The notes beneath the pieces are model-generated. The model was not told the DNA's origin. It ran no database searches and saw only the letters and a program-made list of their open reading frames with translations. Below are positions 6,918 to 34,488 of a stretch of DNA of 48,678 nucleotides, piece by piece. The DNA is taken from the IMG/VR virus record IMGVR_UViG_3300045988_107955. The stretch is one strand, 5' to 3'. Made by a program: the position numbers and the translations under genes. Positions within the stretch are counted from its first letter, which is position 1, and each line of letters begins with the position of its first letter. The stretch is from a virus.

Positions 6918-6919
6918 AA

Positions 6920-8345: not shown

Positions 8346-8355
8346 ATATCACCTC

Positions 8356-10691: not shown

Positions 10692-10692
10692 G

Positions 10693-10995
10693 TTAGACCT
10701 CCTTAAAGTCAAATAGGTGTACTTCTAGTTTAATAACTCTTCCACCACAAGCTTGACAAGGAACTGGGTTATAAAGAACACCAATACTGTCTAACCAAGC
10801 ACGGTTACTAGCATTGTCAGGGAATCTTTGAGTAAGTCCTTTAATTGACTTAATAAGAGCTACATCTTCAGTCTCATAAGTAGAACCATACTCAAACCTA
10901 ACATTTTTAAGCTTAACAATATTACCATCTAAATAATTTACTCTGAAGGTCTTACCGTCAGGAAACAGTTTTGACAGTGTATATTTAAGCTTCAT
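10693..10995 (-). CDS. Hypothetical protein (100 aa)
   Basis: An ORF in the head module with a C-terminal CQACGG pair. No family recognised. Confidence 0.5.
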   Translation of the reverse strand: MKLKYTLSKLFPDGKTFRVNYLDGNIVKLKNVRFEYGSTYETEDVALIKSIKGLTQRFPDNASNRAWLDSIGVLYNPVPCQACGGRVIKLEVHLFDFKEV

Positions 10996-11161
10996 CCTTC
11001 TTAGTTCCCTTTACCTTTTTACTTCCAATTTCTTCAGGTGTAACTACCTCTGCAATACCAGAATCAAGACCAAGTTGTCTTTCTCTACGCTCTTGTAGTG
11101 CAAGTTGGTATTCATCTGTAATTTGAGGAAGTTCTACCTCAACTTCTTTTTTCTTAGCCAT
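10985..11161 (-). CDS. Small hypothetical protein (58 aa), below the ORF-track cutoff
   Basis: Hand translation gives MAKKKEVEVELPQITDEYQLALQERRERQLGLDSGIAEVVTPEEIGSKKVKGTKKDEA. It fills an otherwise empty gap, and its stop overlaps the next gene's start by 11 nt. Confidence 0.5.
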   Translation of the reverse strand: MAKKKEVEVELPQITDEYQLALQERRERQLGLDSGIAEVVTPEEIGSKKVKGTKKDEA

Positions 11162-11172
11162 AGATGCACCTC

Positions 11173-11502
11173 TTAAAGAGTTCCTGTATTACCTACTAGT
11201 GTATCAGAAGTACCTGGTGTAACTGCAGTGTCTTCTTCATCACCAATGTTACAAGGTTTACACCATTTACAAGGCATTTCTTCTTTTTCTTCCACTTCGT
11301 TTGGAAGTCGTTTCCAAGTATCACCACAACACATGAAGATTCCTTGGACTTGCTTAGTAGCAGGGTCAGTGTAGTTAATAGCTACAGAACCTTGACCATC
11401 CCAAGCTGTCAAACGTTGTAGAGCAGTCTGAGCTTCAGTACCCTTAAGAGTAATTTTTTCTCCATTGTGAGTAAGCTCTACTTTAGCTGTGATTACTTTC
11501 AT
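11173..11502 (-). CDS. Hypothetical protein with a C-terminal Cys cluster (109 aa)
   Basis: ATG at 11502 with GGAGG 6 nt upstream. Cys cluster: CC...C-x2-C-x2-C (MCCGD...PCKWCKPC). Confidence 0.5.
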   Translation of the reverse strand: MKVITAKVELTHNGEKITLKGTEAQTALQRLTAWDGQGSVAINYTDPATKQVQGIFMCCGDTWKRLPNEVEEKEEMPCKWCKPCNIGDEEDTAVTPGTSDTLVGNTGTL

Positions 11503-11531
11503 CACATACCTCCGATTATTTTAATTACTGG

Positions 11532-12086
11532 TTAAAATAGCTCATCTAAACTAATACCAGTAGATGTACCTGTGTTTTTATAGTGAGTAATCACTTCATA
11601 CATCTGTTTTGCATCATCATTAGTAAGTTGGTCTTTAAAGTCATTGATGAAGTCTTGTTCTGATACATTCTCTACTTTAAGTACAGCATACTTATCAGCT
11701 TTTCCTTCTTTGACTTTACCAATTACATAGGACAGAACAGATGGAGTATAAATACTTCCTTGTGATTGCTCAGTACAAGCTCTATAGTCAACTACAATAG
11801 AGATTGTTTTAGCTTCTTTATTAACTTTGATACGGTTGATAAAGGCAATTGATTCATTAACTACAAGTCTCTCTCTTGGAGTTGAAGTCAAATACCCTTG
11901 GCTATCAGTTTGTGGTACTTTAATAGCGTTTCCTGCAGGTTCAAGACCATTCTTTCTAACCTGCTCATCAAGTTTATTAAGTTCCACATAGTTTTCCATA
12001 GTGTATACTTTAGCATCATCAATTTTACCAAGTGATTTTACTTCACTATACTTACCATCAAAGAACTCTTTCAAACTTCCTGACAT
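11532..12086 (-). CDS. Hypothetical head-module protein (184 aa)
   Basis: ORF with compact spacing to its neighbours. No motif recognised. Confidence 0.5.
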   Translation of the reverse strand: MSGSLKEFFDGKYSEVKSLGKIDDAKVYTMENYVELNKLDEQVRKNGLEPAGNAIKVPQTDSQGYLTSTPRERLVVNESIAFINRIKVNKEAKTISIVVDYRACTEQSQGSIYTPSVLSYVIGKVKEGKADKYAVLKVENVSEQDFINDFKDQLTNDDAKQMYEVITHYKNTGTSTGISLDELF

Positions 12087-12089
12087 TGT

Positions 12090-12515
12090 TTAATTCCTTT
12101 CATACATTGACATTAGTGCTTCCTGTTCAGGAGCAAACTTACTTTCTTTCTCTTCAGTAACCATTTCAGCTACCATATCTGCAGTGATATTGTAGATGTA
12201 GTTGTTTTCATAATGAATTATCTTAGGTTTATTATCCTTCATGCTATCTTGCTGATAACCGAACTCAGTAACACCTTCATTGTGTATACATACAAAAGAT
12301 ACTATAACCATTGGTAGAGACCAATTCTCATATATATCTTTAGGAGATGTACCAAAGTGTTTACCAATCCTAAGACAGTAGGCAAAGTAATCATCAATAG
12401 GAGTGTCATAGTATTTACTATCTACTTCCTTTGTTACTTTACCATTTACATCATCATAGACTAACTTCTGTACCCTACTAAGTGTCTCATTGAAAAAACC
12501 CTGAGTTTTTATCAA
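12090..12515 (-). CDS. Hypothetical protein (141 aa); start uncertain
   Basis: The ORF track start is a TTG with no clear RBS, and it overlaps the upstream gene by 29 nt. Confidence 0.4.
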   Translation of the reverse strand: MIKTQGFFNETLSRVQKLVYDDVNGKVTKEVDSKYYDTPIDDYFAYCLRIGKHFGTSPKDIYENWSLPMVIVSFVCIHNEGVTEFGYQQDSMKDNKPKIIHYENNYIYNITADMVAEMVTEEKESKFAPEQEALMSMYERN

Positions 12516-13020
12516 TAAGCTTACTAGACAGAACTACAAGTGATTCATCACTCAAATATTCCATGTCATAGTCACTGATACCAAGTCCATACTGTACTAG
12601 TGTTTCCATAGCATCTACTACTTCATCACTGAGTTTAGAATATACTTCAGTAACTTCTGATAGAGACATAATTTCTTGCTCACCAGTAGATGTATTTACT
12701 TTTGAGAAGTAAAGGATAAGTGTAGTTACAGCATGACGAACTCTACGAGCTTTACGAGGTGTAATAGATACCCCTTTAAATACACGAATAACTTCTCTGC
12801 CTTCATCTGTGTCAGTGTAATTACCCTGGATAGCAAAGTTCTTAGGATAGATAAACTTGGCTTCATAATCAGATTCAGCATCAATGTTATTGACATCACC
12901 TACAACTACAGGGGAGTCATTACTTCCTATAGCCATGAAAGGTTGGTCTTGTCGTTGTGCTTGCTCAATAGCTTCAATCATGCCATGCTGAGCATTTTTG
13001 TCAAAATTGATTGTTGTCAT
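12487..13020 (-). CDS. Hypothetical protein downstream of portal (177 aa)
   Basis: Translationally coupled to the portal gene by a 4-nt overlap. It occupies the position of a minor head protein. Confidence 0.45.
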   Translation of the reverse strand: MTTINFDKNAQHGMIEAIEQAQRQDQPFMAIGSNDSPVVVGDVNNIDAESDYEAKFIYPKNFAIQGNYTDTDEGREVIRVFKGVSITPRKARRVRHAVTTLILYFSKVNTSTGEQEIMSLSEVTEVYSKLSDEVVDAMETLVQYGLGISDYDMEYLSDESLVVLSSKLIDKNSGFFQ

Positions 13021-14351
13021 TGTTCCCCCTCTAGAAGATGTTTATAAAGGTATTCTTTAGCTTCTTCAGTATACCCTGCTTCATGGATACGTTCAAAGGT
13101 TTGTGACATGAAATTATCTTTTTCATAGTCATAGTAATCTTTAGTTTCTTGGTTTTTGAACCTAAAAGTGTAACCTTCATAACCCATAAGCCTGATTACT
13201 TCAGTAAGCTTGACTGCAATCTTATCTCTCCAAGGAATAACCTTGTGGATGATGAATGTCTTAATGACTTCATCCTTACCAATATTCCCTGTACCTGCAT
13301 CCAAGTCAAATACCTGTGGTGAAACACCATAAATTTGACAAGAGAAGCGTGTAGCATGGATTGATAAGAGGTTTAGGTAATCACTAGGTTTAGAATCCCT
13401 AGTCAACTGTTCCATATCACTGAAGATGTCTGAATAAATGATTGAATCATTGTACTCTACATTGGCTAGCATGTCTGCTAGTGATTTTACGTTGTCTTTT
13501 CTGACATCCTCATTGAATACAGCGTTAGAATTACTTGTATCAAAGATTTTAGCCGAAGTTGAAGGGTTTCCATCATTCTTCATCTTAGAAAGCATTGTTT
13601 CATTGTGTTTAAATGCCAATGTACCAACACCATTACGTTGAAAATCATGAATAAAGTAATCTAAGAGCTTAAGGATAAGATGAGTACGCTTTTTATCGTT
13701 CTCAAATGGGCTAACACCAATGAATGAACCATCCATAGTGATATTTGTGAAGTCTTCTGAGGTTAAAGCTATAGAATCCTTGTCATTTGAGACAATATTA
13801 CCATCATCATCAATGTAAAACCTATCATCTACCACTTCTTCAGAAGCCCTTATCCAGATATTCTTACGATTTAAGCTATGATACCGTCTTAGAATGTAGA
13901 TGAAGGGCATGTAAACAAGTGGAATTTCTTCAGATTCTCTAAAAATGATGTCATAAGAGTTCTTAGGAACAATCATAATACTATCTTTATGACCATTATG
14001 AGCTTGTTTTGCAGGAATCTTTCTTACACCTACAGCACCTTGTTCAAAAAGCTCTCTTGTAAGCTGTTTAAACATGTCTATAACTGTAATTCCTTGGATA
14101 TTTTGGGAATCTAGCATGTCTCTGAGAGTTTCACCCTCAATAGAGCTATCTTCATCCTTAACAAGCTCCATATCACCTGCAAAGATGTAGTCAACAATAC
14201 CTTCAAGAATAGTGTTAATACCTGGCATATTAGTTACTAGGTATTGCACTTGTTCATAGGTAAGTGTATCATCCATCTCATTTAGCTGTGAAGGAATCCC
14301 TATACTGTCTTTAATAAGGAGTTCATAGCCAGTTTTTCTATCAATTTCCAC
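13017..14351 (-). CDS. Portal protein
   Basis: 444 aa, immediately downstream of the large terminase with a shared base at 14351. Size and position are typical of a portal. No direct motif. Confidence 0.65.
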   Translation of the reverse strand: MEIDRKTGYELLIKDSIGIPSQLNEMDDTLTYEQVQYLVTNMPGINTILEGIVDYIFAGDMELVKDEDSSIEGETLRDMLDSQNIQGITVIDMFKQLTRELFEQGAVGVRKIPAKQAHNGHKDSIMIVPKNSYDIIFRESEEIPLVYMPFIYILRRYHSLNRKNIWIRASEEVVDDRFYIDDDGNIVSNDKDSIALTSEDFTNITMDGSFIGVSPFENDKKRTHLILKLLDYFIHDFQRNGVGTLAFKHNETMLSKMKNDGNPSTSAKIFDTSNSNAVFNEDVRKDNVKSLADMLANVEYNDSIIYSDIFSDMEQLTRDSKPSDYLNLLSIHATRFSCQIYGVSPQVFDLDAGTGNIGKDEVIKTFIIHKVIPWRDKIAVKLTEVIRLMGYEGYTFRFKNQETKDYYDYEKDNFMSQTFERIHEAGYTEEAKEYLYKHLLEGEQ

Positions 14352-15952: not shown

Positions 15953-16505
15953 CTGTTCCCTCTTCTAGTCTCAATACCTCATCATGTTCTAGTTCTTTCT
16001 GTTCTTCTTTAGAACCTTTACCATAGTCTGCCCAGATATTACCTAGCTCATCAAACTTATCTAGGATAAGCTCCCTTGTAGCTGATGCAGTATTATCACT
16101 ATCATCAGTAACTAGAGCCATAGATACTTCTCTAGATACTGCTTTACCTTCAACTCTATCAGCCCACTCTTTACGTTCATCTGAACTAATCATAGATAGT
16201 TTAGTTTGAACTAAAGCATTAACCCTTGTAGCTGTAGGTACTGGAATATTTTCTACAAATTCTACATCTAGTTTTTTGACTTTATCAACTACAAGAGGGG
16301 CAATGCCCCAAAACATCTCTACTACCTCTAACTGGTCTAGAGACATTTCAGATAAAGCTCTCATTTCTGTAGAATAAGCTCTATTTTTCTTTTTTGATTT
16401 TGGTAGGTCTGAGTGACCATACCAATATTTAGGAAAGGGAATACCTTTACTAAGAAAGTAGTCTCTATCCTTACCTTCAATAGCTAATTTAATTTCATCT
16501 TTCAT
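15933..16505 (-). CDS. Terminase small subunit candidate
   Basis: 190 aa, the first gene of the late operon, overlapping terL by 20 nt. RBS AAAAGGGG lies before the ATG. Function is by position only. Confidence 0.5.
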   Translation of the reverse strand: MKDEIKLAIEGKDRDYFLSKGIPFPKYWYGHSDLPKSKKKNRAYSTEMRALSEMSLDQLEVVEMFWGIAPLVVDKVKKLDVEFVENIPVPTATRVNALVQTKLSMISSDERKEWADRVEGKAVSREVSMALVTDDSDNTASATRELILDKFDELGNIWADYGKGSKEEQKELEHDEVLRLEEGTDGETEG

Positions 16506-16534
16506 AAGTAAACCCCTTTTTACTTGAAATACAA

Positions 16535-16606
16535 TAGTTCCACCAGGAATTGAACCTGGAGTAGAGGTTTAGAAGACCTCTGTGTTATCCGTTACACCAT
16601 AGAACC
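16535..16606 (-). tRNA. tRNA-Arg(UCU): tRNA-Arg, anticodon UCU
   Basis: Hand-folded cloverleaf. Acceptor GGTTCTA/TGGAACT (two G-U pairs), D stem GTGT/ACAC, anticodon stem GAGGT/ACCTC with loop CTTCTAA, T arm CCAGG-TTCAATT-CCTGG, discriminator A. Confidence 0.9.
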
Positions 16607-16610
16607 TAAA

Positions 16611-16641
16611 ATAAAAACCATACTCCTTCCCAGGAGTATGG
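16611..16641 (-). terminator. Intrinsic terminator 4 nt upstream of tRNA-Arg
   Basis: On the minus strand: CCATACTCC-tgggaa-GGAGTATGG (9-bp stem) followed by TTTTTATTTT. Confidence 0.8.
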
Positions 16642-16770
16642 AATCTAGGAAGGAATTACAACGTAAAAATCAACCAATACCAAGGAAATAAATATAGTTA
16701 CTCATTACCCCAAACCATATCTATCTCCTTGCTACTGGTTGGTATTATAATTACTGTAGTTTACCTTCTC

Positions 16771-16841
16771 AGCCCCTAGACGGAATTGAACCGACGATAA
16801 AGCTTTTGCAGAGCCATGCCTTACCTCTTGGCTATAGGGGC
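16771..16841 (-). tRNA. tRNA-Cys(GCA): tRNA-Cys, anticodon GCA
   Basis: Hand-folded. Acceptor GCCCCTA/TAGGGGC, anticodon loop CTGCAAA, T loop TTCAATT with one T-T mismatch in the T stem. Discriminator U, as expected for Cys. Confidence 0.85.
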
Positions 16842-16908
16842 ATCAAGTAACTAATAAAAGTTACTCTAGGAATAAGAAAAAGTTATGAATCCTTTAGGAC
16901 ATACAGTA

Positions 16909-16937
16909 ATTATATATTATATTATTATAATTGTCAA
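16909..16937 (-). promoter_or_regulatory. Consensus sigma70-type promoter upstream of tRNA-Cys
   Basis: On the minus strand: TTGACA, 17-nt spacer, TATAAT. Both hexamers are perfect. Confidence 0.7.
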
Positions 16938-16939
16938 TA

Positions 16940-17765
16940 GTTATTTAGTAATTCTTAGTGATTGAGAGCTACAGACGTGCTTGCATGTCTGTACTCGAAG
17001 AACTTAGAATTACTTATTGATAAACTACAAGGGACATTTAATTAACTACAGAAGTGATTATTATTATTTATCTAATCGCTAGGCTTTGCTTTGGGGCAAG
17101 CCTAGCTAAGTAACTGAATTGGTTTGAAGACTTGCAAAACCAATGAATGTTACGGTTAATGATACTACTAATACTGACACTGACTAATGATAGTAAGAAA
17201 ATCCCCCCCCCCAACAAAAAGCTTGTAATTACTTGGGGTGGGAATAGGGAATACAGACTTCTTCAATCATCATATCTGTAAACTACAAACCTATTTCTGA
17301 GAGCAGACGACCTATCTGATTAATTAGGTTGGGATTAGTTCCCTAAACCACTATCAACAGTAGTGTCCAGTCGGAGAGACTGCTCATACTAAGTAATAAC
17401 TTAGCCTGCCCACCTTGCCAACGTTCACGTTATAGCATTTCAATACCTGTCATATCCACGTTGTGGAGAGTGCTTTTGACACACCTTTAGAGGTATCTTT
17501 ATCAGGTCAATTCCTTTAACTAGTTGCCACTAGTCGCTGGAAGAAGCTCTTTAGATATTCACTATCATGTTATTCCTTTGTTGCTGTTACAACTTAGGCA
17601 GTATAGCTTATTCTCTATTGAGTTTATTCCTCCTTAGCTACAGTGTCTCTGATACGGAGCAGTAGCAAACCTCCGTCACCAATTTTTCCAAGCCTACTTG
17701 AAGGTAAATTGTTAAGTGCGTAATTAAACCTCTGAACTCTGTAGTTCAATCTCTATTTAATTATA
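16940..17765 (-). ncRNA. Large structured non-coding RNA candidate (GOLLD/ROOL-class by context); ends approximate
   Basis: No ORF of 60 or more codons in any frame. It has its own promoter at 17800-17772. Many perfect helices were verified by eye (17078-17106, 17110-17153, 17252-17280, 17368-17382, 17455-17467, 17476-17510, 17519-17534, 17654-17676). tRNA genes follow on the same strand. The strand call rests on promoter and terminator context. Confidence 0.6.
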
Positions 17766-17771
17766 TTTACA

Positions 17772-17800
17772 ATTATAAAACATAAATTTGTAAAAAGCAA
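17772..17800 (-). promoter_or_regulatory. Near-consensus promoter for the large ncRNA locus
   Basis: On the minus strand: TTGCTT, 17-nt spacer, TATAAT. It lies directly downstream of the 17846-17804 terminator. Confidence 0.65.
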
Positions 17801-17803
17801 TAG

Positions 17804-17846
17804 AAAACACAAAAAAGAAAGCACATTCAGAGACAAATGTGCTTTC
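17804..17846 (-). terminator. Intrinsic terminator
   Basis: On the minus strand: GAAAGCACATT-tgtctctg-AATGTGCTTTC (11-bp stem) followed by TTTTTTGTGTTTTC. Confidence 0.8.
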
Positions 17847-17872
17847 TGAGGTTTGATTACGCATATTTATTA
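17808..17872 (-). ncRNA. Very short ORF-free transcription unit (about 60 nt) between promoter 17907-17879 and terminator 17846-17804
   Basis: Defined only by the flanking near-consensus promoter and the strong terminator. It has no start codon or RBS. Confidence 0.35.
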
Positions 17873-17878
17873 TAACCT

Positions 17879-17907
17879 ACTATTTTAAATAAGTCAACAC
17901 TTAAATA
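17879..17907 (-). promoter_or_regulatory. Near-consensus sigma70-type promoter
   Basis: On the minus strand: TTGACT, 17-nt spacer, TATAAT. Confidence 0.65.
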
Positions 17908-17916
17908 TAAAAAAGT

Positions 17917-17951
17917 ACAGTGTTGGATGTCTGTACTTTTTAACATGAAAT
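17917..17951. terminator. Bidirectional intrinsic terminator
   Basis: AAAAGTACAG-tgttggatgt-CTGTACTTTT, with an A-run upstream and a T-run downstream, so a U-run follows the hairpin on either strand. Confidence 0.7.
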
Positions 17952-18058
17952 AAGGAGACTTTATTATCAAGAATAGATATTAAAGTTGATATAAAATGCC
18001 AGTGTTGATGCTTACAAATCATCACTTCTAATTTATATTTGAACTATTATTAGCTCAT
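17920..18058 (-). ncRNA. Short ORF-free transcription unit (about 140 nt), candidate sRNA
   Basis: Bounded by promoter 18093-18065 and terminator 17951-17917. The only ATG-initiated frame lacks an RBS and would run through the terminator. Confidence 0.3.
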
Positions 18059-18064
18059 AGCTAT

Positions 18065-18093
18065 ATGATACATCAAAAAAGGGTCTAAGTCAA
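18065..18093 (-). promoter_or_regulatory. Near-consensus promoter whose -35 lies inside the preceding terminator hairpin
   Basis: On the minus strand: TTGACT, 17-nt spacer, TATCAT. Confidence 0.5.
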
Positions 18094-18104
18094 TACTTAA
18101 ACCC
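18075..18104 (-). terminator. Intrinsic terminator
   Basis: On the minus strand: GGGTTTAAG-tattga-CTTAGACCC followed by TTTTTT. One pair (plus-strand 18085/18100) is G-U on the minus-strand RNA but a C-A mismatch on the plus strand. Confidence 0.75.
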
Positions 18105-18164
18105 AATTTCAACAGAAAAATTAACTTAAAGGCATTTAAAGTGGCTTTCCTTCAACTACCGTAA
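18078..18164 (-). ncRNA. Short ORF-free transcription unit (about 85 nt), candidate sRNA
   Basis: It starts about 7 nt after a perfect TTGACA-16-TATAAT promoter. It contains hairpin TTAACTTA...TAAGTTAA and ends at the 18104-18075 terminator. Confidence 0.4.
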
Positions 18165-18170
18165 GTTAAT

Positions 18171-18198
18171 TATAGCAAAAGAAAAAGAGATGTCAAGT
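18171..18198 (-). promoter_or_regulatory. Consensus sigma70-type promoter
   Basis: On the minus strand: TTGACA, 16-nt spacer, TATAAT. Confidence 0.7.
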
Positions 18199-18315
18199 AA
18201 CATCCCTTATTCCCATCACAAAGTTTTAATTCTATGGAGTAAACTAATATGAATTTTCAACATTATCGCCTACACATGTAGTATAAACCATCTAAGCTAC
18301 AGAGTCAACATTTAT

Positions 18316-18594
18316 TTATGGATATTTAACTTTCTTAGCATCACTAAGCTGTTCCTTACATAACAAGTATAAATTAGTGATGTCATAACCCATACATCCA
18401 TTCTTGTTATACAAGTCCCACTTAACCTGTAGCTGTGTATAACGCTCTGATTTCTCTTCTCTTAAGTCTTCTAGCATCAGTGGTATATATCTACCCATAG
18501 CTAGTACATCATCCTTAGAAAGCTTCTTAGACACCTTAAACACCCCTTTATTTAGTATATACTCCTGGACGAATAGTAAACTTCCTTTGTACAT
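18316..18594 (-). CDS. Small hypothetical protein (92 aa from ATG 18594, or 72 aa from GTG 18534)
   Basis: The ATG start overlaps the upstream gene by 47 nt. A GTG at 18534 has a GGGG RBS about 7 nt upstream, just after the upstream stop. Confidence 0.5.
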   Translation of the reverse strand: MYKGSLLFVQEYILNKGVFKVSKKLSKDDVLAMGRYIPLMLEDLREEKSERYTQLQVKWDLYNKNGCMGYDITNLYLLCKEQLSDAKKVKYP

Positions 18595-18862: not shown

Positions 18863-19074
18863 TAGTCAGCCCCCCTTAATACATCATCTACAGCTCCTAG
18901 TAATTCCTCTAACTCTATCCACATATCTTCTAGATAGTCATTAGTTTTATAAGTCTTCAGTAACTTATTATACCTACTCTTAAACTGATGATAGTATAAA
19001 GGGTTACTCATCCTAATAGCTTCCAATTTAGCTTCAATGTTAGCTTTTAAACCTGCTATCTGTAGTTCAATCAT
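18862..19074 (-). CDS. Small hypothetical helical protein (70 aa)
   Basis: RBS AGGAGG lies 8 nt upstream of the ATG. It is the first gene of a three-gene leftward unit divergent from the early operon. Confidence 0.55.
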   Translation of the reverse strand: MIELQIAGLKANIEAKLEAIRMSNPLYYHQFKSRYNKLLKTYKTNDYLEDMWIELEELLGAVDDVLRGAD

Positions 19075-19115
19075 CTTGTATTCCTCCTAGTAATTAATAT
19101 TGATTGACAGTTACT

Positions 19116-19130: not shown

Positions 19131-19304
19131 GGGTTGCATAAGCTAAAATTTATAGAAAAATATAGGGTTGCAATAAGTGAAGTATCTAAAAATTATAAAG
19201 GGTTGCAGTTTTAAATTAGTTGAATATAGTGGAGGGTTGCAGAATTATTTTATTTGAATGTAATACGAGGGTTGCAATTTTTAAAAGTTTGAATATAACA
19301 CGCC
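19131..19304 (+). repeat. Array of five phased GGGTTGCA boxes (starts 19131, 19165, 19200, 19234, 19269; period 34-35 bp), each resembling a promoter
   Basis: Units 3-5 read TTGCA(G/A), a 16-nt spacer ending in TTGAA, then TATAGT / TGTAAT / TATAAC. Units 1-2 share GGGTTGCA(A)TAAG but have weaker -10 elements. Confidence 0.7.
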
Positions 19305-19478
19305 CCAAACGCTCTGAGCGTGAAAGTCCAAAAATACCTAGTATATATATACAAACCCTTAATTTTAAAGCATTCTGTAGCTTACCAATAAACATCTTTC
19401 CGAAAAATCATAATTTTCCAGAAACATAGATAGATATGCTTAATCAGTGAAACACGTTGATACTAAAGGGATTGTCTA

Positions 19479-19499
19479 TTGTTTGAGTTGATAAGCTAC
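19479..19499 (+). repeat. Direct repeat copy A (TTGTTTGAGTTGATAAGCTAC)
   Basis: 20 of 21 bases are identical to 20024-20044. An upstream GTTGATAC...GGATTGT motif is also shared. Confidence 0.8.
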
Positions 19500-19610
19500 G
19501 AGCATTGATAGAGTACAGACTATACCAATTTAAGCAGTGGTATTAATGATTAATTGATAGTACAGTATATTATATAGTATGCTTTGTTATCATCATGTCA
19601 TTGTCTGTTA

Positions 19611-19618
19611 GGGTTGCA
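19611..19618 (+). promoter_or_regulatory. Isolated sixth GGGTTGCA box
   Basis: An exact 8-mer match. No convincing -10 element lies downstream. Confidence 0.4.
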
Positions 19619-20023
19619 TGTCTATGACTCTATGAGATGCGTGCATTGCACTCTTTTTACAGTCATATATCTACCCTCTTATTCTATTAATCATTGTATA
19701 TATCATACTCTAACACTACACTACTATCATTACTCTATATCATTATCCTATCTATCCTACACTTACTAGCCTATCATCATAGCACGTTCATAGACACCTC
19801 TAACAGCTTCTACAATCGTTTCTAATACGTTGGTAGTGTTATCATACCTACTTATACTTACCATTGCTTATACGTCCTTATAATAGCTTATACTGATATA
19901 TGCTTACTAGTCTCTACTATATAAGGACAATAATTAATGTGTACTAATAAGATACTATACAATGTATTAACGAGCGTAGCGAGTTGATACGTTGGATTGT
20001 ATCTTATATAATGTATCTTTGTT

Positions 20024-20044
20024 TTGTTTGTGTTGATAAGCTAC
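20024..20044 (+). repeat. Direct repeat copy B (TTGTTTGTGTTGATAAGCTAC)
   Basis: Partner of 19479-19499, located 545 bp downstream. Confidence 0.8.
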
Positions 20045-20179
20045 AGAAGGGGTCATGGCTCACCAAGAGCCATTCCCTTAGTAATCATTTATACTATAGA
20101 ATATGCTAGCCCAAAATAGAATCAGAAAAACAAAATAAAAAGGTCTTAAAATAAATTTTAAACTTTTTTCAAAAACCTA

Positions 20180-20207
20180 TTGACATTGTTACAGAATACT
20201 GTATAAT
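20180..20207 (+). promoter_or_regulatory. Consensus early promoter
   Basis: TTGACA, 16-nt spacer, TATAAT, about 75 nt upstream of the first rightward gene. Confidence 0.75.
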
Positions 20208-20281: not shown

Positions 20282-20560
20282 ATGGCAAACAAAGAACTTA
20301 AATTCAGTTACTCAAACGCAGAACTTTATATCTCTAAATATAATGTATATGGCAGTCGCTTGTTCCTCTTGGTTGACATTGTGAATAATACAATGTATTC
20401 AGGGTGGACAGCAAGCACAGTGGCTACTCCTCGATACGCTGAATATCACGTACTTGAAAACGTTACTCAGAAAGAGGTTAAACGTATTAAAGCACAAAAA
20501 GAAGCTATTGGCTTTAAAGAACTCACTGATGATGAGTTTAAAGAAGCCATCAAATATTAA
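20282..20560 (+). CDS. Early hypothetical protein (92 aa)
   Basis: First ORF after the consensus promoter. No motif recognised. Confidence 0.55.
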   Translation: MANKELKFSYSNAELYISKYNVYGSRLFLLVDIVNNTMYSGWTASTVATPRYAEYHVLENVTQKEVKRIKAQKEAIGFKELTDDEFKEAIKY

Positions 20561-20799
20561 ACCCCTTTTAGGTTAAAGCCTAACTCTTATCTTGCAAGGG
20601 ATAAGGGGGTATAGAGGATTTAAGCTATCCTCGGAGCTATCAACAATCTAGTGACTACCCTATTTGTGTTAATAGGCATAGAGCTAGTGAGACAAGCCAA
20701 AATCAAGCTACAATATTGTTAATAACTTATATGCCTTGGTAACTTGGGAACAACTGTTACACTGAACAGACAAGACAGATGAAATAAAGAGGTATTACA

Positions 20800-20946
20800 A
20801 TGCTTATTGTAGTTAAGCACAAAGAAAAAGGGGTGTTATCTATTTCAGAATACCCTAGTATAAAAGTAGCTGAAAGAGAATATAAAAAACTCTTTCCTGA
20901 TACTTTTGATGAGTTGATTATAATGGAATCTACAGAATATCTGTAG
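20800..20946 (+). CDS. Small early protein (48 aa), below the ORF-track cutoff
   Basis: AAAGAGG lies 8 nt upstream of the ATG. Hand translation: MLIVVKHKEKGVLSISEYPSIKVAEREYKKLFPDTFDELIIMESTEYL. Confidence 0.45.
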   Translation: MLIVVKHKEKGVLSISEYPSIKVAEREYKKLFPDTFDELIIMESTEYL

Positions 20947-20973
20947 TTTATGAATAAGTAAGGAGTAAATAAA

Positions 20974-21492
20974 ATGGCAGTAATTAAGATTGATTTGACA
21001 GAATTAGGTTTGTTTTCTGGGTTGTATAACTCTATCTGGGATAATGAATTAGAAACAGTACAGCAAGAGGAAATTATTTCAGTATGTGAAGATATTTTTG
21101 AAGACTGTAGTTTTTACACAAGAGTTAAGAATAAAGAAAGTCTTTTAAAAGATATAGCTGAATTATTCTGTAATGCACTTGAAAATAGTTTAGAAGGTGT
21201 ATTTAAATTTGATAGCTCTTGGTCACCTTCTTTTTACAACTATGACACTGACCATATTTATTTAAAATGGACTGTGGAAGATAAGACTGAAGATGAAATG
21301 GAAGATATGCTAGAAACTTTCCTTCTTGAAACTGATAATCTGTCAGATTATGAAATTTTCAGTGTGTTTGATTATAACGGTAATGGTGATAATGTTCTTA
21401 ACGATAATTATGACATTATCATGATTGAAGATGGTAACGAGTATATAATTAAAGATATTAATGAAGACAGTGTAGAGTTACAAAGTATTTAA
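20974..21492 (+). CDS. Highly acidic early protein (172 aa); DNA-mimic / anti-restriction candidate
   Basis: Hand count gives 42 Asp+Glu against 9 Lys+Arg. It lies in the early takeover gene position, with RBS AAGGAG. Confidence 0.4.
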   Translation: MAVIKIDLTELGLFSGLYNSIWDNELETVQQEEIISVCEDIFEDCSFYTRVKNKESLLKDIAELFCNALENSLEGVFKFDSSWSPSFYNYDTDHIYLKWTVEDKTEDEMEDMLETFLLETDNLSDYEIFSVFDYNGNGDNVLNDNYDIIMIEDGNEYIIKDINEDSVELQSI

Positions 21493-21504
21493 GGAGATAA
21501 TAAA

Positions 21505-21579
21505 ATGTTGGGTTGTGTTGTTTTAGGGGCTATGGCTCTATTGATTGTAGGTATTGATTATGGAAAACTTTATTATTAG
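21505..21579 (+). CDS. Possible 24-aa hydrophobic micropeptide
   Basis: AAGGAG lies 8 nt upstream of the ATG. Sequence: MLGCVVLGAMALLIVGIDYGKLYY. It overlaps the next gene's start. Very short, so tentative. Confidence 0.25.
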   Translation: MLGCVVLGAMALLIVGIDYGKLYY

Positions 21580-21796
21580 TCTTAAAAATGGTGAAAAGTA
21601 TCACTTGAAAACAGAATATAAAAGAATTTCACTGACAAACAAAAAGGCTCTATATAGTAATATAGAGGTGTTTAGTCCAGTACCTAGAAAAGATATTATT
21701 GAGATAAGAAAACCTATTTCACAAGAAGAAATAGATGACTGTAGTTTGATTATTACTGTTACAAAAGCTATGGTTAAAAGATTTAACAAAATTTAA
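21560..21796 (+). CDS. Early hypothetical protein (78 aa from ATG 21560)
   Basis: The track start at 21554 is a TTG, and the first ATG is at 21560. No motif recognised. Confidence 0.5.
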   Translation: MENFIISLKNGEKYHLKTEYKRISLTNKKALYSNIEVFSPVPRKDIIEIRKPISQEEIDDCSLIITVTKAMVKRFNKI

Positions 21797-21808
21797 GGAG
21801 ATAGTAGA

Positions 21809-21976
21809 ATGTTTAATATTTTTGTAAAAAAAGAAGACAAGGCTGTATTTAAAGAGCCTTATCGTCCTAGTTGGGAAGAATCAGCTAGAGCATGGGAGCA
21901 GTCTCATATTGCTCGTAAAAAGGCTTTTGAGAGCGTTAAACATGACTTAAGTAGTAATACCCTACCACGCATTTAA
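21809..21976 (+). CDS. Small early protein (55 aa), below the ORF-track cutoff
   Basis: AAGGAG lies 8 nt upstream of the ATG. Hand translation: MFNIFVKKEDKAVFKEPYRPSWEESARAWEQSHIARKKAFESVKHDLSSNTLPRI. Confidence 0.5.
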   Translation: MFNIFVKKEDKAVFKEPYRPSWEESARAWEQSHIARKKAFESVKHDLSSNTLPRI

Positions 21977-22100
21977 AATTGATTACAAGCCCTTTTAGAG
22001 GGGTTTAAGACACACTAGTAAGGCTAGCACTAGACTGTCAGGGGTCTAGGTGTCATAGGTCATATTATTGACCATTAAATTTAATAAGGAGTTAAAATAT

Positions 22101-23111
22101 ATGGCTTTTGAAACTATTAAAGCAAAACAAGTCAGGGACTATATGAATAAGTATAGTCTTACAAACAAGGTATTTGCCAAGGCACTAGGTGTAAGTCCTA
22201 GTTCTGTTAATGCTTGGAAACAAAGAGGATTGTCAAGCAAGACAAAGAATTTTAGGAAGCTACAAAGAGTCTTGAAACTAGATTTCTACCGTGACAATGT
22301 AGTTGATGTTCCTGATGAATTACCTTGTGGCAATACATGGTCAGTTAGTAGAGTGTCTAAATGGTTAGAAAGTCCTTGGGATTTTTACTGTCACTACATT
22401 AAAGGTCTATCCAAGCCTAGTCCGTGGCAAGACGCATTAGACCGAGGAACTACACTACACCATATACTGGAATGTATCGGTAATGGTGTTAGTCTACATA
22501 GTATCCTAAATTCTATTGAAATTTGGGGTAATGAAAAAGGATTATCTGAAAAGGGTATTGCTGATGGTATCCGTGTAGCTAAAAAGTACATTGAAAATTA
22601 TGGTGGTGTAGACACCATTGGTAAGGTATTAGAAACTGAGAAATTGATTAAATGGGATTTATCAGAATATATCCCAGGACAGCATTTTCAAGGCTATATA
22701 GACGCTGTAGTTGAGGACAAAGACGATGGTGTATGGTTGGTTGATTATAAGACCTACAGCAATAAACCACGCTTTGAGAACCTACGTTTAGAACTACAGT
22801 GTAATGTTTACATGTATGTTATGAAAGAAATTCTTGGCTATAACGTGCAAGGTTTTGTCTATGACTGTATCAATCCGAGAGAGAAAATTGTTGGTAAAGG
22901 TTATCACTTCCATCAGTTCAAAATCAACTACAACGAAAAAATTGTAACTAAAGTAGTTGAGGATTTTCTTTCTACGATTGAAATTATTATCAACAATCCT
23001 GATTATAATATCTTCAAAAAATCTGATTATGGCACTCCTTACATGGATGAACTTGTTCATGGTTTTGAGGAAGAAAACAAAATCAAGATTACAGGAATTG
23101 AGGAAGAATAA
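22101..23111 (+). CDS. HTH-fused PD-(D/E)XK (RecB/Cas4-family-like) nuclease
   Basis: The N-terminus resembles an XRE/Cro HTH (LTNKVFAKALGVSPSSVNAWKQRG). The nuclease core has GYIDAV...WLVDYKT...QCNVYMY (D, D/E-x-K, Q-x3-Y). I moved the start to ATG 22101, with AAGGAG upstream. Confidence 0.65.
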   Translation: MAFETIKAKQVRDYMNKYSLTNKVFAKALGVSPSSVNAWKQRGLSSKTKNFRKLQRVLKLDFYRDNVVDVPDELPCGNTWSVSRVSKWLESPWDFYCHYIKGLSKPSPWQDALDRGTTLHHILECIGNGVSLHSILNSIEIWGNEKGLSEKGIADGIRVAKKYIENYGGVDTIGKVLETEKLIKWDLSEYIPGQHFQGYIDAVVEDKDDGVWLVDYKTYSNKPRFENLRLELQCNVYMYVMKEILGYNVQGFVYDCINPREKIVGKGYHFHQFKINYNEKIVTKVVEDFLSTIEIIINNPDYNIFKKSDYGTPYMDELVHGFEEENKIKITGIEEE

Positions 23112-23112
23112 T

Positions 23113-23487
23113 ATGAATAGGCTGAAAGAGTTACGCAAAGAAAAAAAGTTATATCAGAAAATGGTAGCTAAAATTTTTGGTGTCAACGTAAGAACGTGGC
23201 GACGTTGGGAATGTGGAGAAGCTCAAATTAGAATCGACAAATTAAAGGAAATTGCTGATTATTTTGGGGTGACAGAAGCATATTTGCTTGGATATACCAA
23301 CAACCATTTGAGTGATAATAAGAAAAAATTTCATGAATTTTGGGATGGTAAAGAAGGTTCGGCAGTTGATAAACTTAATGATTTAACTCAAAATAGTAAA
23401 GGAAAAATCAATGTTGTAGGGTATCAACTCATACATGGGGATAACGGATACCCTATTACTTACATTTTAGTTGAAGAGGATGGATAA
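23113..23487 (+). CDS. XRE-family HTH protein (124 aa)
   Basis: MNRLKELRKEKKLYQKMVAKIFGVNVRTWRRWECGE is a classic XRE helix-turn-helix. The start is at the internal ATG with a GAGGAAG RBS; the track's N-terminal extension overlaps the previous gene. Confidence 0.75.
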   Translation: MNRLKELRKEKKLYQKMVAKIFGVNVRTWRRWECGEAQIRIDKLKEIADYFGVTEAYLLGYTNNHLSDNKKKFHEFWDGKEGSAVDKLNDLTQNSKGKINVVGYQLIHGDNGYPITYILVEEDG

Positions 23488-23633
23488 TGAAAGATAAAAT
23501 AATTCCTATGTTGGTTGTTATTGGCTTTTCAACATTGTTTGTTAAGGATGAAAAAAGTTTTTATTCTTGGTTTTCATGGTGTGGGTTATTTGTAGCTATC
23601 ATTTTACTATTATATTATGTGATAGGAGTTTAA
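23487..23633 (+). CDS. Small membrane protein (48 aa), below the ORF-track cutoff
   Basis: TAATG start/stop overlap with the upstream gene. Two hydrophobic segments (IIPMLVVIGFSTLF, CGLFVAIILLLYYVIGV). Confidence 0.45.
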   Translation: MKDKIIPMLVVIGFSTLFVKDEKSFYSWFSWCGLFVAIILLLYYVIGV

Positions 23634-23634
23634 T

Positions 23635-23868
23635 TTGAAAAAAGAATATTTAGGTGATGAGGAATCAGTAAAAAAATTTTGGGAGAATGTTATAGATATG
23701 TGTAACCGTAGAGGAACTACAATTACAAAATTATCTCTTAAACTAGGTAAGTCACCTAATCACATATCAAACATGAAAAGTCAAAATATAAACCCTACTT
23801 TAGTAAAAATAAAAAATATCGCTGAAGCTTTAGGGATAGGAATTACAACACTTTTTAAAGGAATTTGA
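23635..23868 (+). CDS. Cro/CI-type HTH protein (77 aa, TTG start)
   Basis: AGGAG lies 6 nt upstream of the TTG. The HTH reads GTTITKLSLKLGKSPNHISNMKSQ. It is directly upstream of the palindromic GGGTTGCA box. Confidence 0.7.
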   Translation: MKKEYLGDEESVKKFWENVIDMCNRRGTTITKLSLKLGKSPNHISNMKSQNINPTLVKIKNIAEALGIGITTLFKGI

Positions 23869-23883
23869 AAAATTTATGTTTTA

Positions 23884-23915
23884 GGGTTGCATTTTGCAAC
23901 TCTTAGTGGTACAAT
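23884..23915 (+). promoter_or_regulatory. Promoter with overlapping palindromic operator
   Basis: GGGTTGCA box with -35 TTGCAT, a 17-nt spacer and -10 TACAAT. The palindrome GTTGCA-ttt-TGCAAC spans the -35 and spacer. Confidence 0.65.
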
Positions 23916-23953
23916 AAAAGGGTATTAAGATAAAACAATAAGGAGACAATATT

Positions 23954-24367
23954 ATGGAAGAAAAAAATTTAGTTATCTTACCTGAAGAAGTAGTTGAGTA
24001 TTTAGATTTTATGAAAGAAAAAAACTACACTTTGAAAGGTGTTTTAAACGTAGTTATCGGTGAAGGCAGGATAAAAAAATTTATGGATAACTACTTGGGA
24101 CATGGAAAAAACCAAGAAAAAGTAGCTCTTGCTTGGTTAAATGGATACAAGACGAAAGAGAAAAATTTTATTGTTAAATTTAAAAATCTTGGTGATGTTT
24201 ATGGTTATCTTAACTATGAAAGAGAAGCAAAAATTTTTAAATTAAGTAGTAAAGATAATTCAGTATACTTCCAAACAATATTCACAAAGAAATTCCTTGA
24301 GGAAAATGGTTTTGGTTGGGTGTTTGACAGTGAAGGTGTACATATTATTGAGGTAGAAAATGATTGA
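23954..24367 (+). CDS. Hypothetical protein (137 aa), DUF1642-like by memory
   Basis: The segment QEKVALAWLNGYKTKEKNF resembles a motif I recall from streptococcal phage DUF1642 proteins. The assignment is weak. Confidence 0.4.
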   Translation: MEEKNLVILPEEVVEYLDFMKEKNYTLKGVLNVVIGEGRIKKFMDNYLGHGKNQEKVALAWLNGYKTKEKNFIVKFKNLGDVYGYLNYEREAKIFKLSSKDNSVYFQTIFTKKFLEENGFGWVFDSEGVHIIEVEND

Positions 24368-24524: not shown

Positions 24525-24548
24525 TTTAAGGGCTTTATGCCCTATTGA

Positions 24549-24671: not shown

Positions 24672-24710
24672 TTACCTTTTAGGTAAAAAATTTTTAAAGG
24701 AGTAAACTAC

Positions 24711-25499: not shown

Positions 25500-25501
25500 C
25501 A

Positions 25502-25918: not shown

Positions 25919-25928
25919 AGAGGAAAAA

Positions 25929-27411: not shown

Positions 27412-27421
27412 AGGTGTTAGG

Positions 27422-34486: not shown

Positions 34487-34488
34487 CC

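Follow-up and report, generated by a model that had tools for sequence, protein, structure and literature searches.

What fills the 1.8-kb gap upstream of the packaging genes in this phage, and how are transcripts started there brought to the late operon? The window (the whole 48,678-nucleotide stretch analyzed, IMG/VR record IMGVR_UViG_3300045988_107955) comes from a phage whose host is probably Streptococcus. The original prediction took the stacked promoters and terminators in this gap for a multiplied lambda PR'-6S-tR' leader and offered a small-RNA island as an alternative. We found six sigma-A-type promoters and five hairpin-plus-U-run terminators on the minus strand of 16506-18316, and the gap is densely filled with RNA genes: four small-RNA cassettes, then an ~800-nt non-coding RNA (ncRNA), then P5, tRNA-Cys, a 28-bp hairpin and T4, followed by tRNA-Arg and terS. 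The locus is best read, from its sequence, as an island of RNA genes rather than a multiplied leader, and we give this explanation as a whole, including the cassettes, the ncRNA, sRNA3 pairing, P5 and a role of T4 as insulator or attenuator, a probability of about 0.6. The elements are as follows.

18308-18280, minus strand: promoter P0, TTGACT-17-TATACT, 10/12 matches, overlapping the end of the last small ORF
18273-18176, minus strand: sRNA0 unit, ~95 nt, predicted start ~18273, ending in T0
18208-18185, minus strand: T0, hairpin plus U run, kept in all alleles (-13 to -16 kcal/mol)
18196-18169, minus strand: promoter P1, TTGACA-16-TATAAT with TGn extended -10, 12/12 matches, invariant in relatives
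18162-18075, minus strand: sRNA1 unit, ~88 nt, ending in T1
18104-18081, minus strand: T1, hairpin plus U6, from the terminator scan
18093-18065, minus strand: promoter P2, TTGACT-17-TATCAT (TATTAT or TAATAT in relatives)
18058-17908, minus strand: sRNA2 unit, ~150 nt, four hairpins, ending in T2
17941-17910, minus strand: T2, 11-bp stem, 10-nt loop and U run (-11 kcal/mol, z -4.4)
17897-17869, minus strand: promoter P3, TTGACT-17-TATAAT, 11/12 matches, conserved
17862-17806, minus strand: sRNA3 unit, ~55 nt, hypervariable 5' leader, then T3
17847-17816, minus strand: T3, hairpin plus U run, from the terminator scan
17800-17772, minus strand: promoter P4, TTGCTT-17-TATAAT, predicted promoter of the large ncRNA, conserved in relatives
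17765-16964, minus strand: large ncRNA, ~800 nt, predicted to start from P4 and run into P5 and the tRNAs
17732-17717, minus strand: candidate target of the sRNA3 leader, GAGGTTTAATTACGCA, linker predicted to be single-stranded, following the ncRNA's 5' hairpin (window allele)
16937-16909, minus strand: promoter P5, TTGACA-17-TATAAT, with a ~90-bp block just upstream that is invariant in relatives
16841-16771, minus strand: tRNA-Cys(GCA), present in every island-carrying relative
16741-16671, minus strand: long RNA hairpin, 28 bp, between tRNA-Cys and T4
16641-16608, minus strand: T4, 9-10-bp GC-rich hairpin (16641-16618), then UUUUUAUUUU, ending 4 nt before tRNA-Arg
16606-16535, minus strand: tRNA-Arg(UCU), 30 nt upstream of the terS start
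16505, minus strand: terS start codon, directly after tRNA-Arg

All five promoters first proposed in series on this strand exist, and a sixth, P0, had been overlooked. The coordinates given for P2, P4 and P5 were exact, while P1 had been placed at 18198-18171 and P3 was 10 nt off. P0 is conserved among relatives, some of which have TTGACA instead, with a counterpart in the relative L169 at 3932-3959. Five sites in the whole window, counting both strands, match 11 or 12 of the 12 consensus positions, and three of these lie on the island minus strand, against a mean of 0.04 expected; none of 2000 dinucleotide shuffles reached three. At a threshold of 10/12 the island holds six sites against 0.6 expected. 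P4 has a weak -35, which matches at only 3/6 positions and sits behind the T-rich tail of T3. The island promoters probably fire, and do so early, given their resemblance to the window's two early promoters of consensus type; host sigma-A RNA polymerase would then transcribe the RNA genes.

Scanning recovered T1, T3 and T4, and folding supported T2, whose loop exceeds the limit of the scanner, so four terminators of the original prediction stood with small coordinate shifts and T0 had been missed. Terminator-like sites in the island number five against 1.0 +/- 1.1 expected. The same scan found none in the late operon body (1-14000, minus strand), and on that strand of 30000-48678 the sole strong terminator ends an operon at 33950-33921. 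Two weak terminator-like sites of 6-7 pairs were also seen at 33674-33656 and 47270-47255.

In all five terminators the hairpin and U run persist among relatives, through compensatory changes or full hairpin replacement. The T0 stem exchanges a G-U for an A-U pair, three alleles of the T1 stem (GGG/CCC, GAA/TTC and GAG/CTC) and three of the T4 stem carry compensatory changes, and T3 is substituted by unrelated hairpins with the U run retained in two relatives, L011 and L021. On the minus strand the T1 pair 18100/18085 is indeed U-G. As had been noticed, the 3' arm of T1 contains the -35 of P2, and the 3' arm of T0 likewise contains that of P1, suggesting fused junctions in which the U run would serve as spacer before the -10, which carries TGn at P1. 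The T0-T4 hairpins probably terminate transcription.

The transcribed units behave differently from their control elements. Across 13-15 IMG/VR relatives the hexamers and all promoter and terminator elements are retained, whereas the transcribed bodies between them diverge and are variable or mosaic. Folding indicates that sRNA0, sRNA1 and sRNA2 have structured bodies beyond their terminators, and the 5' hairpin of sRNA2, whose core sequence is confined to this phage lineage, covaries (GAGCTA/TAGTTC versus GCACTA/TAGTGC). A 43-aa ORF in sRNA2 was rejected on a 2-nt indel among relatives, and a target search with sRNA0, sRNA1 and sRNA2 identified no target. Cassettes number 0, 3, 4 or 5 per relative with identical flanking genes, and the ncRNA, P5 and the tRNAs persist despite these changes. 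L174 has five; L169 has three that are no longer alignable by blastn, again with -35 elements inside terminator arms; and L025 has none, a fused terminator-promoter immediately preceding its ncRNA. Given the conserved promoters and terminators, the structured bodies, this modularity and a leader antisense to the large RNA, the four cassettes, each a promoter, a structured RNA of 55-150 nt and an intrinsic terminator, are best read as autonomous small-RNA genes, which would yield sRNA0, sRNA1, sRNA2 and sRNA3 separately. The small-RNA island that had been named as the alternative is thus the better supported proposal.

The large RNA has a structure of 168 pairs, with 99.1% of alignment cells paired and many invariant G-U pairs. 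Changes on both sides affect 28 pairs against 0-3 in slid controls, and here as in the terminators and the long hairpin the covariation is demonstrated, with some of the counts reflecting shared haplotypes because the relatives are closely related. Homologs are found in L025, behind TTGACA-17-TATAAA, and in L169, behind TTGACA-18-TATAGT, both with TGn. No terminator of its own was found in the window or in L169, and in L025 a terminator-like hairpin is internal only, with none at the RNA end, so that P4 would drive an ornate RNA co-transcribed with the P5 unit. Rfam, including the GOLLD and ROOL covariance models, gave no family match at E <= 10. It is a new ornate RNA, found to date in one uncultured phage lineage only. 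The large ornate RNAs GOLLD and ROOL of phages and prophages (PMC5737381, PMC12286853) are similar in size (580 to >800 nt), in their many helices and in being phage-encoded beside tRNA genes and probably co-transcribed with them; unlike them, the island RNA belongs to a single lineage and comes with a dedicated antisense small RNA.

That small RNA is sRNA3. Its hypervariable 5' leader (17862-17848, 15-20 nt) is complementary to the ncRNA linker at 15/16 positions in the window allele, against 7-9 for the sense, reversed and complement controls, and 0/500 shuffles matched the observed value. Four independent alleles are each complementary to the ncRNA of their own phage at 13-15 positions (controls 7-10, shuffle P <= 0.008), and cognate pairs outscore non-cognate ones. 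Complementarity is marginal for leader alleles e, f and g (P 0.03-0.1), and the L011 leader fits its own ncRNA less well than a non-cognate one. This pattern suggests that sRNA3 acts in trans, base-pairing with exposed loops or linkers in the large RNA and thereby influencing its folding, its processing or its stability; alternatively, the pairing could be a long-range helix in cis if T3 is read through. The P1/P7 c4 RNA and the P4 CI RNA, antisense immunity RNAs, offer a parallel: they too are small RNAs just upstream of the target on the same strand, with short complementary segments that vary in a matched fashion between related phages. In this phage the target is itself non-coding, not a leader belonging to an antirepressor or replication operon; sRNA3 has a promoter and a terminator to itself instead of being processed from a leader; and the window showed no sign of lysogeny functions.

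Downstream of the large RNA, P5 is conserved, with homologous promoters preceding the tRNAs in L025 (12/12 matches), L169 and L026. It heads tRNA-Cys, tRNA-Arg and the packaging operon, and a promoter scan of the window found no further strong promoter within the late operon; P5 is the putative late-operon promoter. The long hairpin folds at -37.6 kcal/mol (z -5.5) on the minus strand versus -20.7 on the plus strand, has ten compensatory pairs, is also found in L169, and is likely an RNase III or processing site. The strong terminator had been correctly placed 4 nt before tRNA-Arg. T4 is the sole terminator from P5 to terS, with tRNA-Arg and the entire late operon directly behind it, and every transcript reaching terS must cross it because there is no promoter space between T4 and terS. 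Read-through of T4, by leakiness or regulation, is required for terS expression, so this one element of the proposed read-through logic holds. Phage T4 has a tRNA cluster co-transcribed with the stable RNAs species 1 and 2, and there too tRNAs are grouped with small stable RNAs under host-type promoters; in the island, promoter and terminator are individual to each small RNA, and the packaging operon follows directly on the cluster.

The lambda-like gate itself fares less well. Under this proposal, polymerase starting from one or more island promoters is modified by a phage protein, perhaps encoded by one of the small ORFs in 19074-18316, and then reads through T0-T4 into the late operon, the short RNAs being by-products like lambda 6S, possibly with gained functions. 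The late genes all lie on one strand behind the stack with no other strong promoter, tRNA-Arg and terS are reachable only across T4, and PR'-tR' transcripts can be functional sRNAs, as StxS of Stx phages illustrates (PMC7547250). As in lambda, with its Q protein, and in the Stx phages, an intrinsic terminator stands ~50-200 nt behind a strong promoter of constitutive appearance with late genes beyond, the short transcript can be a regulatory RNA, and a terminator, here T4, must be read through for late expression. Unlike lambda, the island combines four to five independent cassettes with a large RNA and tRNAs, relatives can do without the cassettes, and a single terminator separates the late genes from the nearest promoter. 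Since only T4 lies downstream of P5, no five-fold gate is needed. The three ORFs that had been put in the position of Q have no Q, sigma, activator or other regulator match in Pfam, PHROGs or PDB sequences, and a fold search with the model of orf104 (104 aa, pLDDT 69) gave no match. L025 keeps orf70 and orf104 homologs, the ncRNA, P5, the tRNAs and terS yet lacks cassettes, and no strong terminator precedes its terS; in L026 (TerL 38% identical) a P5-type promoter is followed by tRNA-Cys, tRNA-Arg and packaging genes without terminators. We consider protein antitermination unlikely. Processive antitermination by RNA in cis, in which the P4-derived large RNA or part of it stays with polymerase so that P4 transcripts cross T4 and P5 transcripts end there, with sRNA3 as an antisense inhibitor for timing or specificity, seems more doubtful still. 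In the window and in L169 the ncRNA lacks a terminator; it always lies in cis, ahead of the hairpin or terminator preceding tRNA-Arg and terS, and appears to be targeted by sRNA3 in an allele-specific way. At ~800 nt it is about ten times the size of the known antiterminator RNAs, put being ~70 nt. It has no Rfam match to these elements, and in L025 it is followed merely by a weak hairpin and UUUUAA before tRNA-Arg. Like put (HK022), EAR, conAn2 and canT, which act in processive antitermination (PMC11658703), including in Gram-positive mobile elements, it is a structured RNA placed between a promoter and terminators where a long operon begins, but it is far larger, shares no sequence similarity with them, and its antitermination role is only putative; phage RNAs of similar size beside tRNAs, GOLLD and ROOL, form free nanocages (PMC12286853).

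There are two further readings. In one, the region acts at the DNA level, for example as a pac or cos site, as an origin or through protein-binding repeats, and its palindromes merely resemble terminators. The position would fit, since cos or pac sites are often located upstream of terS; several Logan contigs also end at or just upstream of terS, and the motif TGTAGYTTATCAA is repeated in the island and the early control region. However, the G-U pairs and the fold-energy asymmetry of the long hairpin fit minus-strand RNA only, a T run follows every hairpin on the same strand, and the ends of ~49-kb assembly contigs are scattered and therefore indicate no fixed genome end, making such an element very improbable. 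The least probable of these explanations is the suggested promoter decoy, in which the units titrate host polymerase or sigma-A. Near-consensus promoters spaced ~100-200 bp apart would suit a sink, but we found no evidence supporting one: the RNA bodies retain structure beyond the terminators, the sRNA3 leader is complementary to the ncRNA, L025 lacks the units, and five to six sites per genome copy would be few relative to host promoters.

Two further points count against the RNA-gene island. A constitutive consensus late promoter does not account for temporal control, and an efficient T4 crossed by leakiness may yield insufficient late mRNA. T4 alone necessarily separates a promoter from the late genes, and as an insulator or attenuator it would allow the RNA genes of this phage to be made in excess, while read-through transcripts alone would carry tRNA-Arg and the late mRNAs.

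Our preferred reading, to which we give a probability of roughly 0.6, is that the 1.8 kb between three small ORFs and a terS-like gene is an autonomous island of RNA genes, in which the last terminator, T4, acts as an insulator or attenuator. The original prediction had put forward a multiplied late leader of the PR'-6S-tR' kind, read through by Q, with a small-RNA island as its alternative, and the evidence favors the RNA-gene island over a Q-gated leader. By its appearance, the window is the complete genome, in circular permutation, of an uncultured virulent-type phage (~48.7 kb, GC ~35%), with the following layout around the ORF-free stretch.

20282-33544, plus strand: early and replication genes (DNA polymerase-primase, Sak4-like protein, dUTPase, RuvC)
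48661 to 34049, minus strand: late tail and lysis genes
19074 to 4497, minus strand: late head genes, including protease and adaptor
19074-18316, minus strand: three small ORFs, directly upstream of the island
16505-15933, minus strand: terS-like gene, directly downstream of the island
15952-14351, minus strand: terminase large subunit (TerL)
14351-13017, minus strand: portal

The host is probably a Streptococcus, because the endolysin resembles the B30-type lysins of Streptococcus phages (62-64% identity). The closest cultured terminase, from a Lactococcus P087-like phage, is 25% identical, a DNA search of INPHARED returned similarity to tRNA-Arg alone, and a scan of GTDB genomes for TerL gave no match.

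All the promoters and terminators listed in the original prediction were found on the minus strand, with P1 displaced by 2 nt, P3 by 10 nt and T2 corrected to 17941-17910. That list was incomplete, having overlooked two elements.

18308-18280, minus strand: promoter P0, TTGACT-17-TATACT
18208-18185, minus strand: terminator T0, a hairpin plus U run whose 3′ arm holds the -35 of P1

The -35 of P2 sits in the same way inside an arm of T1, and such fused junctions recur in a lineage that lies beyond the reach of DNA-level alignment. The six putative promoters (P0-P5) are of the sigma-A/sigma-70 type, with TTGACA/TATAAT hexamers spaced 16-18 nt apart and kept in relatives; the weakest is P4, with a -35 of TTGCTT (3/6 consensus matches). 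On both strands of the whole window, five sites reach at least 11/12 consensus matches, three of them in the island, where dinucleotide shuffles predict 0.04 (0/2000 reach three). The other two are early promoters.

19984-20012, plus strand: early promoter
20180-20207, plus strand: early promoter

At 10/12 or better, the island has six sites against the 0.6 expected from dinucleotide shuffles, and it has five terminator-like sites against 1.0 +/- 1.1. No terminator-like site was found on the minus strand of 1-14000, and the sole strong terminator on that strand of 30000-48678 is the one at the operon end (33950-33921). At P5, three TATAAT hexamers overlap or adjoin one another (16909-16931, TTGACAAT-TATAAT-AA-TATAAT-A-TATAAT), and of these only the last has a 17-nt spacing to the -35.

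Conservation was examined in 21 IMG/VR contigs with a terminase 98-100% identical to that of the window, among which island identity is just 82-93%. Thirteen of the contigs span the island; their promoter hexamers and U runs are kept, and the transcribed bodies form two to four mosaic alleles. A stable hairpin with a U run is retained at 5/5 terminators; T1 and T4 each occur as three stem alleles related by compensatory changes, and the T3 hairpin is swapped for unrelated hairpins in L011 and L021. With GC-containing hairpins, immediate U runs and compensatory changes, these elements are predicted to be intrinsic (Rho-independent) terminators. Because hexamers, U runs and hairpins persist despite the mosaic bodies, promoters and terminators are under selection as such. 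That the promoters are decoys, or that the island works as a DNA element, is in either case very improbable. Two side observations concern the downstream end: insertions of ~400-800 nt lie between P5 and the tRNAs in L014 (~3310-3780) and L015 (~4320-5140), in the slot at ~16796-16890 of the window, and the tRNA-Cys body differs markedly among relatives around a constant GCA anticodon.

The four short units, P0-T0 to P3-T3, would yield sRNA0 (~95 nt), sRNA1 (~88 nt), sRNA2 (~150 nt, four hairpins) and sRNA3 (~55 nt), all structured, with a few covariations and without a conserved ORF. Two coding candidates were rejected, a 43-aa ORF in sRNA2 (18025-17894), which most relatives break with a 2-nt indel, and a peptide after tRNA-Cys (RBS and ATG at 16717) whose ATG is missing in relatives; no conserved small hydrophobic ORF overlapping or adjoining an sRNA, as in type I toxin-antitoxin systems, was found. 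From P4 runs a large structured RNA, the ncRNA, of ~800 nt (about 17765-16964), for which RNAalifold on 15 sequences gave 168 pairs in 29 helices, with 99.1% of alignment cells paired and both-side changes at 28 pairs versus 0-3 when partners were slid. Many of its G-U pairs are invariant, which assigns it to the minus strand. It has no terminator and continues into P5, and tRNA-Cys follows 120 nt downstream. Within it, a tract of 7-10 G differs in length among relatives (~17201-17212; A1 columns 582-591); its predicted partner is CUUCUUCC, ~340 nt upstream, with which it would form the G-U-rich helix 10. Reading on from P5, tRNA-Cys is followed by a long hairpin, then T4, then tRNA-Arg ahead of terS.

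16741-16671, minus strand: 28-bp hairpin, -37.6 kcal/mol, z -5.5 (other strand -20.7), with 10 compensatory pairs
starting 4 nt after T4, minus strand: tRNA-Arg(UCU), with terS 30 nt beyond

A possible antiterminator pairing of UUCCUUCC (16653-16646) with T4, in its loop and 3′ arm, was spotted by eye; RNAalifold instead matches these bases to the beginning of the spacer, so the pairing is a tentative lead.

The ncRNA is like GOLLD and ROOL in size, ornateness, phage origin and tRNA neighborhood (PMC5737381, PMC12286853) but fails the covariance-model test: no Rfam family, these two included, matched the ncRNA in cmscan at E <= 10 on 16400-18500 or at E <= 1 on the relatives L169 and L025. At permissive thresholds, Rfam returned tRNAs and chance hits only on the window, L169 and L025, with microRNA-like hits on the long hairpin, and the Rfam models for CRISPR-DR, tracrRNA and 6S had no match in the island at E <= 10. 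Motif scans of GTDB genomes gave 103 evidently chance hits for the ncRNA and 0 for the sRNA2 core, and the IMG/VR motif scan found no lineage beyond the phage's own. We found neither the ~800-nt RNA nor the island described before. Catalogues of short candidate phage RNAs are large (mean 67 nt, PMC10690425), and that catalogue may list island fragments such as terminators or hairpins.

Relatives at increasing distance suggest, by their arrangements, a layered locus. Duplication of the sRNA3-type unit brings the cassettes of L174 (island ~80% identical) to five. For L169 and L170 (orf104, one of the small ORFs, 52% identical), blastn aligns only the tRNAs of the island; three promoter-terminator cassettes, two with the next -35 within the terminator 3′ arm, are followed by a promoter, an ncRNA homolog without a terminator (nhmmer E 3e-43), a promoter, tRNA-Cys, a long hairpin, a terminator, tRNA-Arg and terS. 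L025 (TerL 85%) has homologs of the small ORFs orf70 and orf104 and lacks all four small cassettes. Right behind its last ORF stands a terminator, and one arm of it contains the -35 from which the ncRNA would be transcribed; beyond come an ncRNA that has diverged (E 4e-9), a 12/12 P5 homolog, tRNA-Cys, a short hairpin plus UUUUAA, tRNA-Arg and terS. L026 (TerL 38%) runs from TTGACA-17-TATACT through tRNA-Cys, a hairpin lacking a U run and tRNA-Arg to the packaging genes, and L022, L023 and L027 (TerL 64-66%) have no tRNAs but ordinary terminators and then a non-consensus region before terS. From these comparisons, P5 and the two tRNAs at the head of the packaging operon form the old core, the ncRNA is an addition common to the window, L169 and L025, and the small cassettes, numbering 0, 3, 4 or 5, are accessory.

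Among TerL homologs of 69-87% identity, no island was recovered, the contigs all stopping at or just upstream of terS. The Logan contigs of intermediate relatives (L164-L167) end at terS or <=400 nt upstream; assemblies may break there because the island is hypervariable or repetitive. Homologs of orf104 are found on many Logan and ENA contigs of ~49-51 kb. In L023 (~185-225) and L027 (~2225-2255), which lack tRNAs and ncRNA, a repeated TTGTCAG motif, GGCAG(A/T)AAATTGTCAGTAAGTTGTCAG, lies between terminator and terS and may mark a late promoter that depends on an activator, or a pac site. L024 (1-1348; TerL 52%) has a 12/12 promoter (249-277), ~770 nt without a called gene and a terminator (1042-1071), placed differently from the island; the ncRNA profile had no nhmmer match there, and the stretch may be an unrelated large RNA.

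The sRNA3 leader, 15-20 nt long and single-stranded, is the most variable part of the island and is complementary to the ncRNA of its own genome. In the window, GCGTAATCAAACCTC pairs with GAGGTTTAATTACGCA (17732-17717) at 15/16 positions. In L009, L010, L016 and L019, GCTTTATAAAACCTC and GAGGTTT(C/T)ATAA(A/C)GCA have co-varied at the same site; in L002, L015 and L020, ATGTTCACGTTATAG faces CTATAACGTGAACGT in a UGAA-loop hairpin, and in L008, CTTCAAGCATGACA faces TATCATGCTTGAAG in the loop of helix 25. The change is matched on both sides, from GCGTAAT..CCTC/GAGG..ATTACGC in the window to GCTTTAT..CCTC/GAGG..ATAAAGC in L009, L016 and L019. Four independent leader alleles have complementarity scores of 13-15, versus 7-10 for sense, reversed and complement controls, with shuffle P <= 0.008, and three more are marginal (P 0.03-0.1). 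These scores allow <=1 mismatch, since a G-U-tolerant contiguous-helix score raised the background and discriminated less. Cognate leader-ncRNA pairs score above non-cognate ones, L011 excepted, and most targets fall in predicted loops or linkers. Only chance-level matches were found for sRNA0, sRNA1 and sRNA2 against the ncRNA and the P5-terS segment, for their window alleles against the whole window, and for the small RNAs of L169 against the ncRNA of that relative.

T3 looks strong, and we therefore take sRNA3 to be an antisense RNA that acts in trans; in read-through transcripts, the same pairing could possibly form a cis helix. As in c4- and CI-type RNAs, an above-chance complementary segment lies on the same replicon, and RNA and target vary in a matched way. 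The layout resembles that of P1/P7 c4 and P4 CI, with an upstream same-strand antisense RNA and matched allelic variation. Those RNAs control antirepressor or replication genes, whereas the target of sRNA3 is a non-coding RNA.

Several repeats were noted around these elements. Five direct repeats of a ~30-nt unit with GCAACCC, 34-35 nt apart (19131-19297, also 19611-19617), lie directly upstream of the extended -10 promoter of the small ORFs (TGgTATAAT, ~19124-19114); the window has 7 copies of GCAACCC versus 1.6 expected, and the repeats could be iterons, activator sites of a regulated middle/late promoter, or an origin. The motif TGTAGYTTATCAA (<=1 mismatch) occurs 6 times versus 0.5 expected.

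17017-17029: copy ~80 nt upstream of P5, in a ~90-bp block invariant among relatives
19376-19388: copy
19488-19500: copy
20033-20045: copy
20942-20954: copy
26234-26246: copy

Besides the copy near P5, others are located in the early control region. CTGTAG(C/T)TTA relatives of the motif lie in the spacers of P0 and of the L169 ncRNA promoter. The motif may be a shared operator; its hexamer is also part of an ncRNA helix. A 14-nt perfect direct repeat, GATTGAACTACAGA, links the 5′ start of the ncRNA (17738-17751) to the opening codons of the first small ORF (19059-19072), and a 27-nt repeat, 81% identical, links the ncRNA 3′ end (16946-16972) to the 5′ UTR of that ORF (19088-19114). The two copies lie side by side in the leader of the ORF, where their order is permuted compared with that at the ends of the ncRNA; the arrangement may be due to chance.

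Since tRNA-Arg takes up 72/100 nt between T4 and terS, no promoter is possible there, and tRNA-Arg and all late mRNAs must therefore come from transcripts crossing T4. The read-through idea of the original prediction holds at T4 but not as a five-terminator gate; T0-T3 would close the short units to which they belong, as well as the small-ORF operon. A constitutive-looking sigma-70-type promoter, P5, stands ~270 nt before T4 and ahead of the late operon, and the same form of promoter and close terminator is seen in the P0-P3 units. The P5-T4 logic is that of lambda PR'-6S-tR' with Q and of StxS, where short terminated transcripts are able to serve as sRNAs (PMC7547250); the differences from lambda are that no Q protein was found here and that the leader is dispensable in relatives. 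The three small ORFs, proposed to occupy the place of Q, matched nothing in Pfam or PHROGs at E <= 0.01 or in a sequence search of the PDB, and a structure model of orf104 had no PDB fold match (0 in Foldseek). The late operon also exists without the full leader: L025 is devoid of the small cassettes, in L026 the promoter, tRNAs and packaging genes follow one another with no terminator among them, and both do without a strong terminator. With no detectable relation of the small ORFs to Q or any regulator, a protein that carries polymerase past T4 is unlikely; a novel antiterminator among the three is possible, and T4 may simply be leaky.

RNA antitermination in cis is known from put, EAR and canT (PMC11658703), and the ncRNA, which runs without a terminator into P5, might overcome T4 in this way, which we consider distinctly unlikely. 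We would give equally long odds to an RNA-only control circuit of the late operon, with the ncRNA as licence and sRNA3 as disabler. The P4-transcribed ~800-nt RNA would in cis take RNA polymerase through T4 (processive antitermination), or otherwise license late expression, and the hypervariable sRNA3, acting as an antisense RNA in an allele-specific way, would switch the ncRNA off. If true, such a circuit would serve timing, or kin discrimination and exclusion among co-infecting related phages, and would be the first function for a GOLLD/ROOL-like giant phage RNA, with a dedicated antisense regulator.

Read as an autonomous RNA-gene island, the locus is of interest mainly for its giant RNA, an ~800-nt structured RNA not previously filed, and for the cognate antisense small RNA. 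Phage small RNAs, tRNA clusters and giant ornate RNAs are known, and to our knowledge their functions are largely open, entirely so for GOLLD and ROOL. Here, small RNAs, tRNAs and a giant RNA come together in a single compact, naturally variable locus directly before the packaging genes, and the fused terminator-promoter junctions, with a -35 in the hairpin arm and the U run as spacer, are a neat packing of independent RNA genes. The variable leader of sRNA3, a separate small RNA, is complementary to the giant RNA of the same phage and so offers a built-in handle on it. For annotation, at least eight RNA genes fill what would pass for a 1.8-kb 'intergenic' gap in an abundant uncultured phage, whose host is probably a human-associated Streptococcus.
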